Part shown: in pieces, positions 52,782-59,925 of the stretch
Layout of the letters: the number at the start of each line of letters is the position of its first letter
How positions within the stretch are numbered: position 1 is the first letter of the stretch
NCBI GenBank assembly: GCA_032229665.1
Contig: JAVTWR010000059.1
Coordinates: forward strand, 113,191-177,190
Source of the DNA: Polyangiaceae bacterium
GTDB lineage: Bacteria; Myxococcota_A; Polyangia; Polyangiales; Polyangiaceae
Length of the DNA stretch: 64,000 nt
Direction: 5' to 3'
Notes under the pieces: generated by a model
Seen by the model: only the letters and a program-made list of their open reading frames with translations
Databases searched by the model: none
What the model was told of the DNA's origin: nothing
Program-made: the position numbers and the translations under genes

Positions 52782-53702
52782 TCAGGGCGTCGGATACGCA
52801 AGTTCCACGCGGTTGATCAGCGCTCTGCGCTCCCGGAGATAGTTCTTGGCGAGGCTGCGAACCCATCCTCCCACCGCGGACGGTGCTGCTGGAGCAACCA
52901 CCGCTTCGAGCGCCGCGGAGAGATCTTGGCTCGAGAGGAGCGGCTCATGGGCGGCGTAGACCGCACGTTTCACCACCTTTTCGAGAAGGTCGGCGCCGTG
53001 GTCGAGGGGCGACGAGCCGGTCGACATGCCGGGCCGCAGCCGCCCCAGTAGGTGCGAGGCTGTCGCGTCATCGAGCTGCGCGCCCGTGAAGAGCTCCCAC
53101 ATCGCGACTACCAGACTCCAGGTGGCCACGCTGCCGCCGAACGGGGTCCCTGAGAGGCTGAGCACGCCCGGAAGCCCACCTTCTGCCAATGGGCCGCCGT
53201 TCTCCCCGAGGCCTCCGAGACGAGCGAGGCCGTCGGTGCCGACGAGAATGTGGTGAGGACGGACGGTGCGCGCGCCGATCGACGGGCCCGCCGCCTCGTG
53301 CAGCGCCGTGAAACCGGTCAGCGCGTCCAGGGCGATCGATGACGCGATCGACGGCGGTACTTCCCGCTCGCGGTCCCGTGACAGCTGCAGCAGCACCGAT
53401 AGCGGAGCTCCGTGAACGTATTCCATGATCACCAGCGTGCCCGGGCCGTCTACGACGATGTCGATGGGGGAGAGCACGGTGGCGTGGTGAACCCGGGCCA
53501 TCGTTTGCGCGTCGACCAAGAGCGCCGCGACGGCGTCGGTTCTGCCGGCCAAGTGAGGATGGAGTTGCTTCACCACGACCAGCTTCGCGAAGCCACCCTC
53601 TCCAATGGCTCGCGACAGGAAGAACCGCCCGAGCGCGCCCGCTCCGATCTGCTCGTGGACCACGTACCGGCCCGATTGCGCTACCTCTTTCAAACTGGCC
53701 AT
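52782..53702 (-). CDS. Ser/Thr-kinase-like pseudokinase (306 aa)
   Basis: Start MASLKEV at 53702. The N-lobe GEGGFAKLVVVKQLHPHLAG parallels GGFTKTVAIKRLHPHVAK of the kinase at 57655. HRD is replaced by VRPHHILVG, DFG by ARLGGLG, and no APE motif is present. Confidence 0.75.
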   Translation of the reverse strand: MASLKEVAQSGRYVVHEQIGAGALGRFFLSRAIGEGGFAKLVVVKQLHPHLAGRTDAVAALLVDAQTMARVHHATVLSPIDIVVDGPGTLVIMEYVHGAPLSVLLQLSRDREREVPPSIASSIALDALTGFTALHEAAGPSIGARTVRPHHILVGTDGLARLGGLGENGGPLAEGGLPGVLSLSGTPFGGSVATWSLVVAMWELFTGAQLDDATASHLLGRLRPGMSTGSSPLDHGADLLEKVVKRAVYAAHEPLLSSQDLSAALEAVVAPAAPSAVGGWVRSLAKNYLRERRALINRVELAYPTP

Positions 53703-53719
53703 CTCGTGCGGTCGCTCAT

Positions 53720-54508
53720 CTAGAACGCAAACGCGCCAGTCCCGCTCGCGTGCTGCGTCTTGCCAGCGCCCACGAGATACAGCACCGCCGCCGTTACCAA
53801 CGCACCGGCCGCGACGGCGAGGGATACGTCCGCCACCAGGAACTGGGTCTTCACGTAGCTCGCGTCGTCGGAACTGCACCCGGTGTCGCAGGCAGCGCTC
53901 GACCGACGGGCCAGGCCCAGCCCCGCGAAGGTGCCGAAAACACCAAGCCCGACGACCCCGACGCCCGCGAACACCAGCGGCAGGGCCACGGAGCGCGAAC
54001 CCGAGGGCGTCGTCGCCGCTTCTGGCGCCTTCTTCTCGATACGAAACGTTACCCGGAGGCCCTTCTCGTGCTCCTTCACGAGAATCTTCCGCGTCAGCCT
54101 CGTCGCGCCCACCTCGACCCGAACCTCGTGGGAGCCGGGGTCGACGGTGACCCCACGCGTGACGCCGAGCGCTTTCGGTATCGGCTTGCCGTCGATGAAG
54201 GTCGCTGGTCCGGTGACTTCTTCGCCCGCCTCGTTCAAGACCTCGACCAAGACGGTCGGGGTCGCTTCTTCGACGCGCCGGGCGAAGGCAGCACACACCG
54301 ACGATACCTCCGAAGGGCACTCGAGCTTGGCGCACTCGATGAAGTCGGAGCGAGCGTCGAGGAGCCGTCCTGCCTTTTCGCGCTCCTGGCCGCGAACAGC
54401 CGCGCCGAAGCAGGCCTCATCGGAGGTCTTCGCTTCTGCGGTGCCGGCAGCGAACGAGCTCAGAAGCCCCGCGAGAAGGGTGCAGATGGCCACGCGCGGT
54501 CTCGCCAT
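53720..54508 (-). CDS. secreted Cys-rich / PEGA-like domain protein with C-terminal membrane segments
   Basis: Signal MARPRVAICTLLAGLLSSFAAGTAEA (start 54508). CFGAA...CAKLECPSEVSSVC. FIDGKPI...VTVDPGSHEVRVEV is a PEGA-like beta-sandwich. TM ALPLVFAGVGVVGLGVFGTFAGLGL and a second hydrophobic segment. Confidence 0.65.
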   Translation of the reverse strand: MARPRVAICTLLAGLLSSFAAGTAEAKTSDEACFGAAVRGQEREKAGRLLDARSDFIECAKLECPSEVSSVCAAFARRVEEATPTVLVEVLNEAGEEVTGPATFIDGKPIPKALGVTRGVTVDPGSHEVRVEVGATRLTRKILVKEHEKGLRVTFRIEKKAPEAATTPSGSRSVALPLVFAGVGVVGLGVFGTFAGLGLARRSSAACDTGCSSDDASYVKTQFLVADVSLAVAAGALVTAAVLYLVGAGKTQHASGTGAFAF

Positions 54509-54594
54509 GGGTCCATCGAGAGTACCGAGGCGGCGCCGGCGGCGCCTAGCGCGAAACGACCGTACGAAGCCCCCACAGTGTGCGATTCGCGCTG

Positions 54595-55923
54595 TCACGG
54601 GATCCGATGCCGGCTGCGGAGCTCCTGGAAGTAGCGTCGCGCCAGACCCGACACGGCTGCAGCTCGCGTGACGTTGTGCCCCTCGGCCGCCAGCACGCGC
54701 TCCACGTATCGTCGCTCGAACTCCTCCATCACCAGGGCCCGGGCCTGGGGCAGCGCCAGCTTCATCTCCAGCACGCGATCGATCATGCCGGAGGTGGATT
54801 CCTGACGCGTAGCGCGCCGAGAATCGAGTTGCTCCATGTCTTCGGTATCGCCCAGCACCGCGCGCCGCTCGACGGCGTTGAGGAGCTCGCGCACGTTTCC
54901 CGGCCACTCATAGGCCTCCCAGCGAGCAAGCGTGCGCGAGGGAACCGCCTGCGCGTCGAGGCCGAGGCGCTTCCAGAAATAGGCGGCGAGGAGCGAGACG
55001 TCGCCTTCTCGCTGCCGGAGCGGCGGAAGCGCCACGCGGCCCCCCGTGAGCCGATGAAACAAGTCTTCTCGAAGGCGACCGTCATGGACCTCTCGGTCGA
55101 GATTCACTCGGCTCGACGCGATCGTGCGAACGTCGGCGGTGTGCCAGGTAGTCCCTCCCATCCGCACGAGCTCACCGCGCTCCAGCGTTCGGCAAACCTT
55201 TGCCTGAAGGTCCATATCGAGCTCTGCGATCTCGTCGATGAGGAGCGTGCCCCCATGCGCTTGCTCGAACAGGCCCGGACGCACGCCCTCGGGTCCCTCT
55301 TCGCCGAAGAGAGTGGACTCCGCCCGGTCGCCCAGGGCAGCACAATCGAAGATGACGAACGGCGCATAGGCTCTCGGGCCCAGCTCGTGAAGCGTCTCTG
55401 CCACCAGCTCCTTCCCGGTGCCCGTTTCGCCCTCGATGCAAACGACGAGATCCGAGCTCGCGAGGTCGGTCAAGAGGTCGTACATCCGACGCATCGGCAA
55501 CGACGCGCCTACCACGCGACCCAGGTTCGTCGCTCGGCTCAGCCGAGCCAGTGGCGGGCCTGCTGCAGCCTCGACCAAGAGCGTCGAACCTCCCACGACG
55601 ATTGCTTCACCGCCGGCGAGTGCCACGGCCTGAACACGCAGTCCGTGGATGAACGTCCCGTTCTTGGATCCCGTATCCACCAGCGTCAGCAAGCTCGACG
55701 AAGCATCGAGCGACAGGTGGCGACGCGAGACCAACGGGTCCTGAAGCCGCAAGTCCGAGGAGGTGCTCGTTCCGACGAGCTTGGGTGCGCTCGTTCGGTC
55801 GAGCACCAGCTGCTTTCCCTTGTCCGGTCCGTCGATCACTCGAATACGGAACGTCACCTGAGCACCCACGCTCGCAGCCTGATGGCTCAGCAACGTGGAG
55901 CGTTCGTCAACGTCTCGGTCCAT
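54595..55923 (-). CDS. FHA-domain / AAA+ (sigma-54 enhancer-binding-protein-type) / Fis-HTH regulator lacking the GAFTGA loop
   Basis: FHA: LVGTSTSSDLRLQDPLVSRRHLSLD...VDTGSKNGTFIHG. Walker A GETGTGKE, Walker B LLIDEI, WPGNVREL. HTH HNVTRAAAVSGLARRYF. Between ESTLFG and FEQA the sequence is EEGPEGVRPGL instead of HEKGAFTGA-x7. Confidence 0.85.
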   Translation of the reverse strand: MDRDVDERSTLLSHQAASVGAQVTFRIRVIDGPDKGKQLVLDRTSAPKLVGTSTSSDLRLQDPLVSRRHLSLDASSSLLTLVDTGSKNGTFIHGLRVQAVALAGGEAIVVGGSTLLVEAAAGPPLARLSRATNLGRVVGASLPMRRMYDLLTDLASSDLVVCIEGETGTGKELVAETLHELGPRAYAPFVIFDCAALGDRAESTLFGEEGPEGVRPGLFEQAHGGTLLIDEIAELDMDLQAKVCRTLERGELVRMGGTTWHTADVRTIASSRVNLDREVHDGRLREDLFHRLTGGRVALPPLRQREGDVSLLAAYFWKRLGLDAQAVPSRTLARWEAYEWPGNVRELLNAVERRAVLGDTEDMEQLDSRRATRQESTSGMIDRVLEMKLALPQARALVMEEFERRYVERVLAAEGHNVTRAAAVSGLARRYFQELRSRHRIP

Positions 55924-56288
55924 AGCACTTCACTATACTCGGAGCCGCCTCGGCTTCATCGTCGTTTCGCCCTCCGTCGCAACGATGTACGCATCCCCAT
56001 GCTCAACCGTTTGTCGCACGCGTGAGCGACCCGAGCTTCGCGCAGGAGCAGGCCGCCCCCCCTCAACTGGATGATGGCAGTAGGTGAGCGTCACCAGTCG
56101 TCGGAGGCGCGATCTCGTCGATCGCACCTCGACCAACAGGTGGATCTTACAGGCTTCGTCGGCTGGACCCGTGCGCGGACCCCGACGGTACGAAAGATGC
56201 TGCGCACCCCTTGCGTCCGCTTGCCGGCGCAACGCCGGTACCGCGCGCTCGCGCCGGTGCAGTCCACGTTTGTTCCGGGAGATGACGA

Positions 56289-57578
56289 ATGGTTCGATCC
56301 GAGACGGCACGTAGATCTTCGCTGCGAAGTGGGTCGCGCTTGGCCGTTGCGACTCTGGTCGTGTCGACGTGGGTGGGGGGGCTCGGCGGCTGCGGTGCCG
56401 ATTCTCCATCTGCGGAGGGCGACTCCGCCATGGGTGAGAGCTCGAGCAGCGGCGGCCAAGTGGCTGCCGACGCCTCCACTTCGAGCTCCAGCTCGAGCTC
56501 GAGCGGCGCGCCTTCTCCCGTGACGCCGACGACGGACGCGTGTCGACGCTTTCATCCGGGTCACTACTTTCGGGAAACGGATTCGCGATCTGGTAACCAG
56601 GATGGCCTGGCTCACATCACCGCCGACTTCGGTCCTGGTGGCCTCGATCTTACGGACTTCGCGGGCCTCCTCTACCAGATCGACTGGGCCATGCTCGAGC
56701 CGTCCCCGGGCGTCTACGACTTCTCGCGCCTAGATGCCGTCATGGCCATCGTGAAGAAGGCGGGAAAGTTCCTGCGCGTCAAGATCATGGAGCGCTCGTT
56801 CTGGGCCGGTTGCAACCCGCCGGTACCCATCGTGCCCAGCTACGTTACGAACTTTCCGGCCGCGTCCGGGGTTGGTTGCTTTGCCGACGTGTGGACCCAG
56901 GCCACCATGGATAGGCTCATCGCGCTCCACGTCGCGATCGTCAAGCACTTCCAAGCGGACTCGTCGTTCGTCGGCTTCAACACCGAGGAGACCGCGACGA
57001 ACGTGGCCGTCCTTCAATCGAATCCGTCGCTCGTCACGGCGGGGCTCTATCCGCAGCGCGTGCGCCTCGCCCAGGCCGTGCTCGCTGCAGCCAGCGACGT
57101 ACTCTTCATCAGTGAGTTCAACTGGCCCATCAACAACGACCTGTCGCACTTCTCCACGATGATCGACAGCACGCTCCAAGCAAGTCCACCGCCGCACAAC
57201 GGCATGGGTGTGAGTTGGCCAGATTCGTTTCTCAATCCTGGTTCATACACCGCGGCAGAGCAGTCGCAGACGGTGCCCAAGCTCCAGTGCACCGCGAGCT
57301 CGACGGCGTCGGGGAAGACGCCGTGCACTTGGTACAACCTGGCTCGCACCTACAACACGAAAGTCGTCGTCGCTCCGAACATCCAGGGCGGAACTCTGAC
57401 GGGCACGCTCGCGGAGGCGGACGCGCATTACGCGATGCTCGACACGGATCTCGGCGCTCACATGATCACATGGGAGACCTGGTCCGCGCCCAACGCCAAC
57501 TACCTCAGGCAGATTGCGATCCCGACCGTCCGCAAGCACCAGGGAAAGCTTCGCAACACTGCGTGCCCCTTCAAGTAG
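56289..57578 (+). CDS. lipoprotein with a TIM-barrel glycoside-hydrolase-like domain
   Basis: Lipobox WVGGLGGC, poly-Ser linker. IDWAMLEPSPGVYDFSRLDAVMAIVKKAGKFLRVKI resembles the GH5/GH42-type N-terminal strand-helix pattern. Weak assignment. Confidence 0.55.
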   Translation: MVRSETARRSSLRSGSRLAVATLVVSTWVGGLGGCGADSPSAEGDSAMGESSSSGGQVAADASTSSSSSSSSGAPSPVTPTTDACRRFHPGHYFRETDSRSGNQDGLAHITADFGPGGLDLTDFAGLLYQIDWAMLEPSPGVYDFSRLDAVMAIVKKAGKFLRVKIMERSFWAGCNPPVPIVPSYVTNFPAASGVGCFADVWTQATMDRLIALHVAIVKHFQADSSFVGFNTEETATNVAVLQSNPSLVTAGLYPQRVRLAQAVLAAASDVLFISEFNWPINNDLSHFSTMIDSTLQASPPPHNGMGVSWPDSFLNPGSYTAAEQSQTVPKLQCTASSTASGKTPCTWYNLARTYNTKVVVAPNIQGGTLTGTLAEADAHYAMLDTDLGAHMITWETWSAPNANYLRQIAIPTVRKHQGKLRNTACPFK

Positions 57579-57654
57579 GGCGGAGCACTCACACCCGCGG
57601 CCTCTCTGCACGGAGGCCTTGCGCCCTTCTACTCTCGGAGGCCTACTGAGCGCA

Positions 57655-59037
57655 GTGTCCGCCGGGCAAGCATACCGCCGTCTGGGACGATACCTCCTGT
57701 GCGACGAGATCGCATCGGGAGGGATGGCCACGGTGCACTTAGGCAGACTGGTGGCCGAAGGCGGCTTCACCAAGACCGTCGCCATCAAGCGCTTGCATCC
57801 ACACGTGGCGAAGGACCCAGATCTTGCCGCGCTGTTCCTCGACGAGGCGCGCCTCGTCGCTCGCATCGACCACCCCAACATTGCCAAGACGCTCGACGTC
57901 GCGCGCAGCGACGCCGAGCTCTTCATCGTGATGGAGTACTTGGTGGGCGCCCCCCTCTCGGCGCTCATGCGGGAGCACCGCGCGAGGGACCAGCGAGTCC
58001 CCGTCGACGTCGCGGTCGCCATCGTGCTCGATGCGCTCCGAGGGCTCGAGGCCGCCCACGAGACGACCGATGTCCAAGGCATCCCTCTCCGCGTGGTGCA
58101 CCGCGACGTGTCGCCCGCGAACCTGCTGGTCGGTACAGACGGCATGACCCGGGTGCTCGACTTCGGGATCGCGAAATCGTCCGGACGTGCCGCAACGACG
58201 AAGGACGGACAGGTCAAGGGCAAGCTCTCCTACATGGCCCCGGAGCAGCTCACTGGTCGCGAGGTGGACCGACGCGTCGACGTCTTCGCCACGGGAATCG
58301 TGCTCTGGGAGCTTCTCACCGGCGAGCGCTTGTTCGGCGGCGGCGACGAGGGCGCCACCTTGACCAGCCTGCTCCATGGCGCCCCGGTCCCCCCGAGCGA
58401 GGTGACCCCCGGGTTGCCTGCCGCGCTGGACGCCATCGTCGTTCGTGCGATGCAACGCAACCGCGATGCGCGATTCGCCACCGCACGGGATATGGCGGCA
58501 GCGCTGGAGGCTGCGGCACCGGCGGCCCATGCGCGGCGGGTCGCGAGCTGGCTCAGGGGCGCCAACAGTGAAGCGCTCGCCACGCGAGCGGCCGCGCTCG
58601 CTCGGTTGGAGTCGGCCGTTCCGGATGAGCTGACGCACGGTTCGCGCCCGCCATCACCGTCGATCACCGGGACGGCCACGGTGGAGAGCGACCCGGAGCC
58701 AGCGCGCAGCAGGTCGGGTCTTCGGCGCGCCTTCTTGGTCCTCGCTTTCGTCGCGGCGCTCGGGCTGGCGCTGGCGCTGGCGTGGGCCACTGGAGCGCCT
58801 GCTGGGCCGGCGCAACCCGGGGAGCCCGCGACCAAGTCCTCCACGACGATGCTGTCCGCATCTCCTCGGCCGAAGACGCGTGCTTCGGACAACCCATCCG
58901 CGCCCGCACATCGCCGCGACCCGCGCCCTCCGACGTCACCTGCTTCGCCGTCGGCTCCGCCGTCGTCGGCCACGTGTCCGGTGCGCTCGTACTTGGACGC
59001 GCGAGGGATCCTCCGGTTCACGCGCCAGTGCCCGTGA
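57655..59037 (+). CDS. Ser/Thr protein kinase, single-pass membrane, with a Cys-x-Cys C-terminal motif
   Basis: No in-frame ATG before the G-loop; GTG at 57655 follows GGAGG. GGMATVHLG, VAIKRL, HRDVSPANLL, DFGIAK, SYMAPEQ all intact. TM AFLVLAFVAALGLALALAWA. C-terminal CPVRSYLDARGILRFTRQC. Confidence 0.85.
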   Translation: MSAGQAYRRLGRYLLCDEIASGGMATVHLGRLVAEGGFTKTVAIKRLHPHVAKDPDLAALFLDEARLVARIDHPNIAKTLDVARSDAELFIVMEYLVGAPLSALMREHRARDQRVPVDVAVAIVLDALRGLEAAHETTDVQGIPLRVVHRDVSPANLLVGTDGMTRVLDFGIAKSSGRAATTKDGQVKGKLSYMAPEQLTGREVDRRVDVFATGIVLWELLTGERLFGGGDEGATLTSLLHGAPVPPSEVTPGLPAALDAIVVRAMQRNRDARFATARDMAAALEAAAPAAHARRVASWLRGANSEALATRAAALARLESAVPDELTHGSRPPSPSITGTATVESDPEPARSRSGLRRAFLVLAFVAALGLALALAWATGAPAGPAQPGEPATKSSTTMLSASPRPKTRASDNPSAPAHRRDPRPPTSPASPSAPPSSATCPVRSYLDARGILRFTRQCP

Positions 59038-59088: not shown

Positions 59089-59925
59089 ATGGTGAAGAAG
59101 AAGGCCGCCGCGCTCACCGCCACGGCGCTCGCATCACTTGCAGGATGCACCTTCGCATTCCCGGTAACGGTGCGCGAAGGGCCGGAGGACGGTGGTGCGG
59201 GCGACGTACGTGTGGCAGAGGCAGGTAGCTTCGAAGCAGCGGCGGACGCCTGGGTGGCCGACGCCGATGCCGCACCTGGATTCTTCTGCGCCAGCGTCGA
59301 CCCGGGCGATAGCAGCTTCTTCCGTTGCTTCGACTACGACTCCCCGGATGCCGCACTCGCCGCACCGGCTGCCATGCCTCGATCCAGTGTCGGGATCGCC
59401 ACCGACGCTGCCTTCTCTGCACCCAATTCGCTCTTCGCCCAGACCCCGATCCTTGCCGACGGGGCGCTCGGCGGCGCGGTGGACAACGTCGTCGTTTTTC
59501 CCGCGAATGCCCAGACCAAGTCCCTCGACTTTCGCTTCGATATGCGGGTCGAGCCCACGACCGGTGGCTTCCCTGCCTTGGTGGTTGCGAACAACGGGCC
59601 CTGGCGCTTCTACGTGAATATCGAGCCCGGAGCCAACCCCGCGGTGCGCATCCTGGAGGCCAACAACGTAGGCCCGCCGCAGACGCACAACGGGGCTTTC
59701 GTCATCAAGTTCGGGACATGGCATCGCTACGAGGGAAGCATATCGGTGGTGACCAGCACCTTCTCCCTGTCCGTGGACGGTACGCCCTTCTACAAGAACG
59801 AGGCGCTTCAGTTCAAGCCGGCCCCGACGGGTTTCCGGACGGCACTCGGTGTGGAGTACGTACAGGGGCCCTATCCGGCGATCGCCGTCAACTTCGACAA
59901 CGTCGTGCTGCGAGCAGCCTTTTGA
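59089..59925 (+). CDS. hypothetical lipoprotein (LamG/concanavalin-like beta-sandwich suspected)
   Basis: MVKKKAAALTATALASLAGC lipobox. Beta-rich C-terminal 200 aa (FRFDMRVEP...WRFYVNIEP...FSLSVDG). Confidence 0.6.
   Translation: MVKKKAAALTATALASLAGCTFAFPVTVREGPEDGGAGDVRVAEAGSFEAAADAWVADADAAPGFFCASVDPGDSSFFRCFDYDSPDAALAAPAAMPRSSVGIATDAAFSAPNSLFAQTPILADGALGGAVDNVVVFPANAQTKSLDFRFDMRVEPTTGGFPALVVANNGPWRFYVNIEPGANPAVRILEANNVGPPQTHNGAFVIKFGTWHRYEGSISVVTSTFSLSVDGTPFYKNEALQFKPAPTGFRTALGVEYVQGPYPAIAVNFDNVVLRAAF

Follow-up and report, generated by a model that had tools for sequence, protein, structure and literature searches.

A soluble pseudokinase in a rearranged kinase/FHA-regulator locus of a Polyangiaceae bacterium

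Results

The window, i.e., the whole 64,000-nucleotide stretch of Polyangiaceae DNA analyzed here (C59:113191-177190 of a 10.1-Mb genome with 68% G+C), carries a divergent signaling cluster of six genes. One of them, at 52782..53702 on the minus strand, encodes a soluble 306-aa protein that, judged by its motifs, is a genuine pseudokinase; the cluster also encodes an exported Cys-rich protein, an FHA-AAA+-HTH regulator and an intact membrane Ser/Thr kinase (STK). The reading that we favor, at a probability of roughly 0.55, is that the locus arose by duplication and rearrangement from a signaling module present in many copies in uncultured Polyangiaceae-like Myxococcota, with the pseudokinase being a functional, non-catalytic docking or allosteric partner. 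Taken by itself, a maintained, non-catalytic function of the pseudokinase is rather probable. The unusual point of this copy is that one kinase has turned species-specific, catalytically dead and soluble; the known kinds of which the locus is a variant are myxobacterial kinase/FHA-regulator modules, bacterial pseudokinases and atypical enhancer-binding proteins (EBPs).

The proposed module would comprise three proteins. The first is a membrane Hanks kinase of one subfamily with a single membrane pass. The second is an exported partner protein, whose gene usually comes right after that of the kinase and which combines a Cys-rich helical bundle with a sandwich of the PEGA/transthyretin-like kind and a membrane hairpin. 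The third is an FHA-AAA+-HTH regulator. In the window copy, the second kinase would have become a soluble pseudokinase, in this species only, that is co-transcribed with the regulator and the partner protein. Being non-catalytic, it may serve as a docking or allosteric partner of an active subfamily kinase (its neighbor, or the intact second kinase K2 of a sister cluster) and/or of the regulator, which would control targets at sigma-54-independent promoters, as atypical EBPs do.

Catalytic elements of the 306-aa protein

Against the Pfam kinase profile, the 306-aa protein aligns over its N-terminal half only (35 bits, profile positions 1-136 of 263), with both the Pkinase and PK_Tyr_Ser-Thr matches exceeding the Pfam cut-offs. 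Its motifs were read from an alignment with 14 intact relatives and from a family hidden Markov model (HMM) over the 198 kinase open reading frames (ORFs) of the genome. The GxGxxG glycine loop and the beta-3 VAIK Lys (as VVVK) are retained. HRD is replaced by ART, with Thr in place of the HRD Asp, the catalytic-loop Asn is His, and both DFG and APE are deleted. The activation loop is shortened or deleted, the conserved Ser/Thr-Thr of the family is absent, and the alpha-F Asp and the subdomain-XI Arg are lost as well. A sequence-only reading of the same DNA had called the protein a pseudokinase that has lost the alpha-C Glu, HRD, DFG and APE. The call itself stands, since the profile/HMM alignment showed no intact catalytic set (HRD Asp, Asn, DFG and APE are lost), and so do the last three losses; the alpha-C Glu, however, is replaced by Asp, a conservative change rather than a plain loss. 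All five key residues are kept in 193 of the 198 kinase ORFs, and the 306-aa protein, with four of the five lost, is the most degenerate among them. Hydropathy analysis reveals no membrane segment, in agreement with the same reading.

Family-invariant positions, defined as those at least 90% conserved among active family members, are kept at 40 of 75 sites in the pseudokinase versus 86-96% in active members. The family-specific motifs GRY, GGF, LH.H, AHE and LVGxDG are retained, as is the C-terminal helix W...L..R...E. Relative to active members the pseudokinase carries seven deletions, all of them in frame; there are no frameshifts, and homology reaches the last conserved helix. In comparison with all paralogs, its C-terminal third, the part with the membrane segment and the tail, is truncated. 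A pTM of 0.80 was obtained for an AlphaFold model built on paralogs from the genome, in which the activation segment at residues 168-189 is disordered; the best structural matches of the model are the kinase domains of M. tuberculosis PknB.

An intact copy of the gene is present in metagenome strains with 99.8% identity and the complete cluster. These strain copies lie on metagenome contigs of one project, where the whole cluster has 99.7-99.8% DNA identity to the window, and they differ from the window gene by three substitutions in total; dN/dS against the paralogs is saturated. Among 40 relatives, the best matches reach 40% identity and are to intact kinases, and the closest relatives of the pseudokinase are canonical Myxococcota kinases.

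Organization of the locus and its sister cluster

All six genes proposed by the sequence-only reading were recovered at their coordinates by an ORF check of the window, together with the minus-strand gaps of 86 nt (54595 gene to 54508 gene) and 17 nt (53720 gene to 53702 gene). No terminator is predicted in these 17- and 86-nt gaps between the three minus-strand genes, with the terminator scan being at chance level. The features are as follows.

52782..53702, minus strand: soluble pseudokinase of 306 aa that belongs, in degenerate form, to a Hanks-kinase subfamily of the Myxococcota; Pfam match to the N-lobe only
53720..54508, minus strand: exported Cys-rich partner protein, 262 aa; predicted three-helix bundle, transthyretin/PEGA-like beta-sandwich and C-terminal two-helix membrane hairpin; no Pfam or NCBIfam match
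54595..55923, minus strand: FHA-AAA+-HTH regulator, atypical EBP by its sequence; Pfam and NCBIfam matches, GAFTGA loop gone
55924..56288, no strand: intergenic region between the divergent genes; contains two blocks also conserved in the sister cluster
56289..57578, plus strand: glycoside hydrolase (GH)-like lipoprotein with a putative clan GH-A TIM-barrel-like domain; lipobox LGGC, GH35/GH42/GH10 profile matches
57655..59037, plus strand: intact single-pass membrane STK; Pkinase 118 bits, short Pro/Ser-rich outer tail ending in a Cys-loop motif
59089..59925, plus strand: lipoprotein downstream of the kinase; lipobox LAGC, no Pfam or NCBIfam match

A sister cluster is located about 10 kb downstream at C59:178980-187029, i.e., some 2-10 kb beyond the end of the window, and contains the following genes.

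GHlipo2: 51% identical to the GH-like lipoprotein of the window
STK2: intact kinase, 54% identical to the window kinase, with the same C-terminal Cys-loop motif
K2: second kinase, intact
TPR/PEGA-like two-helix protein: recognized by the partner-family HMM
Lipo2: lipoprotein without BLAST-detectable similarity to the 59089 protein
EBP2 (C59:185683-187026): 55% identical to the window regulator, also without GAFTGA

Both clusters keep a GH-like lipoprotein, an STK-type kinase, a second kinase and an FHA-regulator within 8 kb, and their gene order and orientation differ completely. The gene families common to the two clusters suggest that both derive from one ancestral set, and that the second kinase of the window has decayed. 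That all six families are common to the two clusters was considered and rejected, because homology between the 59089 protein and Lipo2 is not detected by BLAST; five hold. A 95% identical ortholog of K2 is present in a same-genus genome, without STK2 upstream of it.

Relationships among the kinases

The neighboring kinase (57655-59037) contains a full protein kinase domain in Pfam (118 bits). The alignment and HMM table show a Gly-rich loop, the VAIK Lys, alpha-C Glu, HRD Asp, catalytic Asn, DFG Asp and APE, and hydropathy places a single membrane segment at residues 359-377; with all catalytic motifs present and one membrane segment, it is the intact membrane Ser/Thr kinase that the sequence-only reading took it for. 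The pseudokinase is 35% identical to it (E 1e-37). A shared N-lobe motif had been regarded as distinctive and as pairing the two proteins. In slightly generalized form, however, this motif occurs in 15 kinases of the genome, and also in the 10 best kinase hits of other genomes that cover the N-lobe. The motif is thus subfamily-wide and does not tie the pseudokinase to its neighbor specifically.

A maximum-likelihood tree of 43 subfamily members does not fix the position of the pseudokinase either. In the free search, it falls beside an intact kinase of another genus (G024; support 99/72), and the neighboring kinase is sister to STK2 of the second cluster (100/97). In approximately unbiased (AU) tests, a clade of the pseudokinase with K2 has a likelihood 8.1 log units above that of the free search (p 0.65), and the grouping of the pseudokinase with STK and STK2 is likewise not rejected (p-AU 0.47). 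The placement beside the G024 kinase was dropped, as the K2-constrained tree scores better and long-branch effects are likely. The AU tests leave the position ambiguous among the K2 and STK/STK2 clades.

Two further features of the active kinase were observed. Its Pro/Ser-rich outer tail is followed by a 20-residue, Cys-bounded C-terminal motif, CPVRSY(L/V)DA(R/E)GILRF(T/K)R(Q/V)CP, at 58975-59037 of the window, which recurs in STK2 (C59:182161-182223) and was found in no other ORF of the genome; the Cys-loop was consequently rejected as a general kinase motif, being confined to STK and STK2. In addition, the gene call on the ENA metagenome contigs starts this kinase at a Met inside the glycine loop (434 aa), cutting off beta-1; a start at GTG 57655, or an upstream start, fits the domain better (window 57655-57733).

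An exported partner family encoded behind Hanks kinase genes

The 262-aa protein (53720-54508) has a signal peptide and two C-terminal hydrophobic helices by hydropathy. In its AlphaFold model (pLDDT 80, above 90 for residues 30-160), a three-helix Cys bundle is followed by a transthyretin-like beta-sandwich and a helical hairpin. The family alignment shows four invariant Cys in the N-terminal part, an invariant Asp (D106), a PGxH motif, two further Cys between the hydrophobic helices and, in most cases, an aromatic residue at the C-terminus, usually Phe. A Foldseek search matches the sandwich to the carboxypeptidase D and N regulatory domains, which are transthyretin-like (E 3e-4 to 7.5e-4), and, weakly, to a chain of the RtkS-PpkA complex (9k1u, E 2.8e-3). 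The protein does not match Pfam PEGA (PF08308) even at E 1, and two of 17 family members match it weakly (E 0.005). The label "PEGA-like" given by the sequence-only reading is therefore apt at the level of fold, transthyretin-like as in PEGA and CarboxypepD_reg domains, but does not correspond to a Pfam PEGA match.

The partner-family HMM retrieves 55 ORFs from this genome. Of these, 35 lie directly downstream of a same-strand kinase gene, 13 have a kinase nearby in another arrangement and seven have none; the chance expectation for adjacency, estimated from 215 kinase ORFs in 10.1 Mb, is about 3%. The family is present in 79 of 81 sampled genomes of the order. At each of 20 loci sampled from 12 other genomes, the partner homolog is preceded on its strand by a Hanks-type kinase gene; 18 of these 20 kinases match both the HRD and DFG patterns, and an FHA-regulator adjoins six of the 20 loci. 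A fusion of sandwich and kinase was found neither in this genome nor at the 20 sampled loci. These counts (35/55 here, 20/20 elsewhere) back the kinase/PEGA-like partnership that had been proposed. Direct coupling of the PEGA-like protein, as a sensor, to the pseudokinase is less plausible, because partners normally follow membrane-anchored kinases, while in the window the order is reversed and the pseudokinase is soluble, with no membrane segment. The family is unannotated; examples in this genome are C81:79975-80850, C36:247523-248344 and C68:48319-49209.

An FHA-AAA+ regulator without the GAFTGA loop

Pfam assigns FHA, Sigma54_activat (E 1e-40), AAA_lid and HTH_8 domains to the regulator (54595-55923), and Pfam and NCBIfam together bear out the FHA-AAA+-HTH architecture ascribed to it. 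Walker A (GETGTGKE) and Walker B (LLIDE) are intact. By contrast, the L1 loop with GAFTGA is deleted, the alignment reading LFGEE-----GPEGVRPGLFEQAHGG versus LFGHERGAFTGA... in paralogs. With this loop lost, the regulator is not expected to be a conventional sigma-54 activator and is, by its sequence, of the atypical, sigma-54-independent EBP type; characterized EBP-like proteins that lack GAFTGA work together with sigma-70 or repress (PMC6158489). GAFTGA is missing from seven FHA-AAA+ regulators of the genome, namely the window protein, EBP2 and five further paralogs, and each of the seven lies within 2.5 kb of a subfamily kinase. In other genomes, the regulators closest to the window protein are 47-51% identical and retain GAFTGA. 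The other six regulators without the motif are encoded at C59:185683-187026, C40:47406-48905, C56:21629-23125, C33:267751-269175, C48:105439-107898 and C8:42875-46087; several such regulators have a degenerate Walker B or further deletions.

Aligned with GarA, the FHA domain is identical at SRRH and NGT, and the arginine of the Gly-Arg pair is replaced by Thr (residue 52). Most FHA-regulator paralogs in the genome likewise have Ser, Thr or Lys at this position and keep SR.H and NG. On the FHA domain of the regulator, Pfam Yop-YscD_cpl scores slightly above the FHA model. Phospho-threonine binding by this domain is plausible, judging from these residues, though not assured.

Conservation of the module and of its genes

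In this genome, a kinase domain lies within 2.5 kb of 19 of 30 FHA-regulators versus 4 of 40 non-FHA regulators, a count that is descriptive because paralogs are not independent. This adjacency supports the functional link between the kinase subfamily and FHA-AAA+ regulators put forward earlier. The more specific route from kinase through phospho-Thr to FHA domain fares less evenly, as the genome-wide adjacency speaks for it and the missing phosphate-ligand Arg of the FHA domain against it. Co-conservation of the gene set in related genomes was not borne out: 40 relatives contain no ortholog of the pseudokinase, and five contain no match to the GH-like gene. Relatives show regulator-kinase or kinase-partner pairs without lipoproteins. 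The module type is conserved; the particular gene set of the window is not.

Lipoproteins and intergenic region

The 56289 and 59089 proteins carry the lipoboxes LGGC and LAGC, respectively. The family profile of the former matches GH35/GH42/GH10 barrels (best E 2.5e-8, about 65 N-terminal residues only), so that the description "GH-like" holds at profile level over this stretch. Pfam Glyco_hydro_42 matches the protein below threshold and 11 of 32 homologs weakly, and two Glu, E137 and E234, are invariant in the family. No match to the GH-like gene was found in five relatives. In four metagenome contigs of PRJEB19935, 99.7-99.8% identical to the window, the gene has a nonsense change, E233* (window position 56985), and is called as two ORFs; the other five cluster genes are intact there. 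The 59089 lipoprotein has no informative PDB match.

The 250 bp upstream of the GH-like gene are homologous between the window and sister clusters and contain two strongly conserved blocks. The first, at 56058-56088, reads CCCCCTCA.CT.GATGATGGCA, followed by a variable 6-mer and GAGC, and thus holds TGGCA, a variable spacer and GAGC with GG-N10-GC spacing. The second, at 56111-56129, reads GATCNCGTCGATCGCACCT, also written GATC.CGTCGATCGCACCT. The GG-N10-GC block resembles a sigma-54 -24/-12 element with a weak -12 and may be taken as a lead, the consensus scan of the window being at chance: across the whole window it gave 25 matches versus 22 expected, with none convincing in the cluster. A sigma-70 promoter scan of the window likewise gave matches at chance level.

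Discussion

Weighing the readings

Several observations speak against a functional pseudokinase acting within such a module. Its gene has no ortholog in three same-genus genomes and 37 other relatives (40 in all), and a 5.8-billion-protein collection adds only 99% identical strain copies. Its terminal branch measures 2.03 versus a median of 0.64, three times the median; 47% of the family-invariant positions are changed; and the strain-level differences, two non-synonymous and one synonymous, are uninformative, yet show no sign of strong constraint. The protein has neither a membrane anchor nor the activation-loop Thr residues that are the usual FHA docking sites, the FHA domain of the regulator is without the phosphate-contacting Gly-Arg arginine, and no specific kinase is singled out as acting on the regulator. 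Moreover, the genes in the window run from EBP to partner to kinase-like protein, an inversion of the usual arrangement in which the partner comes after the kinase.

The pseudokinase gene could be a functionless remnant of a second kinase made redundant by duplication of the cluster, having lost its anchor and catalytic residues and heading for deletion, and open as an ORF only through the rarity of stops at 68% G+C. Its restriction to one species without an ortholog, its branch, the longest in the family tree, the alteration of nearly half of the invariant positions and the truncation of its C-terminal third relative to all paralogs fit such a relic; so do the long spurious ORFs common in this DNA and the gene decay that occurs at the locus itself, as seen in the nonsense change of the GH-like lipoprotein in sister strains. 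However, all seven deletions are in frame without a frameshift and homology extends to the final helix, a pattern with neutral odds of (1/3)^7, or about 1% even with just four independent deletions, which argues for a pseudokinase that is still being translated and has a function. Losses cluster in catalytic elements, and the retention of family-specific non-catalytic surface motifs and of the C-terminal helix, alongside the specific elimination of the catalytic network, also points to function, as do the tight, operon-like spacing and the confidently predicted fold. A relic is, in our judgment, unlikely. A recruitment of this single-species soluble pseudokinase as a non-catalytic adaptor, placed between a membrane Hanks kinase and an AAA+ regulator with an FHA input and no GAFTGA, is tentative and rather unlikely, as is a role of the Cys-bundle/PEGA-like/two-helix family as the general co-receptor of this large class of myxobacterial kinases. 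Such an adaptor would be the bacterial analog of the kinase/pseudokinase scaffolds of eukaryotes at a very early stage, for which the intact sister cluster would provide a natural control.

The circuit of the sequence-only reading, in which the 57655 kinase creates phospho-Thr marks read by the FHA domain, the pseudokinase is the dead paralog of that kinase serving as decoy or scaffold, and the PEGA-like protein is the periplasmic sensor of the pseudokinase, appears quite improbable. Its genes are adjacent and divergently arranged, the window and sister clusters each group an FHA-regulator with an STK-type kinase and a second kinase, and the genome-wide kinase/FHA-regulator linkage supports a functional tie. 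A specific kinship of the pseudokinase with the 57655 kinase is also compatible with the clade of pseudokinase, STK and STK2, which the AU test does not reject (p-AU 0.47), and with the Lys in GGFxK, common to the pseudokinase, STK and one other kinase among subfamily members. Against this, the N-lobe motif as a whole is subfamily-wide, and the best-scoring tree joins the pseudokinase to K2 rather than to its neighbor. Furthermore, the pseudokinase has no membrane segment for coupling to a membrane partner, the PEGA-like family pairs with upstream membrane kinases, one phosphate ligand is missing from the FHA domain, and the regulator is barred from the sigma-54 route.

Finally, it is very improbable that the two divergent operons, an envelope-sensing unit of GH-like lipoprotein, kinase and lipoprotein and a unit of regulator, partner and pseudokinase, are unrelated and were merely juxtaposed by local duplication and rearrangement. 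For this reading, order and orientation are wholly different in the paralogous clusters, relatives have the regulator-kinase or kinase-partner pairs without lipoproteins, and the GH-like gene is dispensable in sister strains and not found in five relatives; against it, four gene families stay within 8 kb in both clusters after duplication and rearrangement, and conserved blocks lie upstream of the GH-like gene in both copies.

Comparison with known systems

Jelsbak et al. reportedly described FHA-domain EBPs of M. xanthus in 2005, and a Ser/Thr kinase input has reportedly been proposed for them. Unlike the M. xanthus FHA-EBPs and kinome, the window has an EBP without GAFTGA and without the Gly-Arg arginine, the kinase-like gene of its operon is dead, and its lineage is an uncultured, Polyangiaceae-like one. 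Myxobacteria have expanded families of Ser/Thr kinases and EBPs, and their kinase genes keep a conserved local context (PMC8538405). Atypical EBPs such as VpsR, TyrR, HupR, M. xanthus HsfA, PhhR and NtrX combine AAA+ and HTH domains without GAFTGA and act at sigma-70 promoters or in repression (PMC6158489). These carry receiver or ACT/PAS input domains, whereas the window regulator has an FHA input and lies beside Hanks kinases; its Walker A and B motifs are intact, unlike those of VpsR.

In M. tuberculosis, the pseudokinase tail of MviN (MurJ) is phosphorylated by PknB and then recruits the FHA domain of FhaA (PMC12599244). Like the window, this system combines a Hanks-fold pseudokinase, an active Hanks kinase and an FHA protein, and the activation loop is shortened in both pseudokinases. 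In MviN, however, the pseudokinase is fused with a lipid II flippase and is a member of ActPs3, an actinobacterial family that lacks the VAIK Lys, whereas the window pseudokinase is free and soluble, keeps the Lys and occurs in one species, and the FHA protein beside it is a DNA-binding AAA+ regulator. By analogy with MviN/PknB/FhaA and with eukaryotic pseudokinases, we infer that the window pseudokinase may act as a scaffold, decoy or allosteric partner.

A recent atlas describes seven pseudokinase families, none reported to be Myxococcota-specific, with the two families that it gives for Myxococcota, Myxo1 and Myxo2, being canonical (bioRxiv 10.1101/2025.01.12.632604). The VAIK Lys is substituted in all seven, in CP1 and DYD only in part of the members (bioRxiv 10.1101/2025.01.12.632604). 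From the descriptions of these families (ActPs1-3, GLW, CP1, DYD and DLHK; Actinobacteria, Cyanobacteria/Proteobacteria; accessory domains), the window pseudokinase is set apart, with its Lys kept. Myxo2 comprises Myxococcota-specific canonical kinases that have either a bare C-terminal membrane segment or a fused carboxypeptidase-regulatory-like (Peptidase_M14NE-CP-C) domain (bioRxiv 10.1101/2025.01.12.632604). The fused domain has the same fold as the partner sandwich, which in the window is a separate gene product; the Cys-bundle/PEGA-like/two-helix family would accordingly be a putative split form of this known fusion.

The threonine-phosphorylation pathway of type VI secretion, with PpkA, periplasmic TagR/RtkS and Fha, resembles the window in having a membrane kinase, a separate periplasmic accessory protein and an FHA reader. 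The output of the window, however, is a DNA-binding regulator, and the two are alike in logic only. Among the inspected cluster ORFs and families, no type VI genes were noticed, no search having been aimed at them.

Significance

Bacterial pseudokinases have hardly been studied, and the described families are old and conserved. If the favored reading is correct, the window would hold a young, sporadic pseudokinase that can be compared with an intact paralogous cluster of its own genome, and could show how a kinase is converted into a non-catalytic signaling part. Possibly weightier than the locus itself are the very common, unannotated exported partner family encoded directly behind Hanks kinase genes and the subclade of FHA-input regulators without the sigma-54 contact loop, both of which concern the way in which the very large kinomes of myxobacteria are connected to gene expression.

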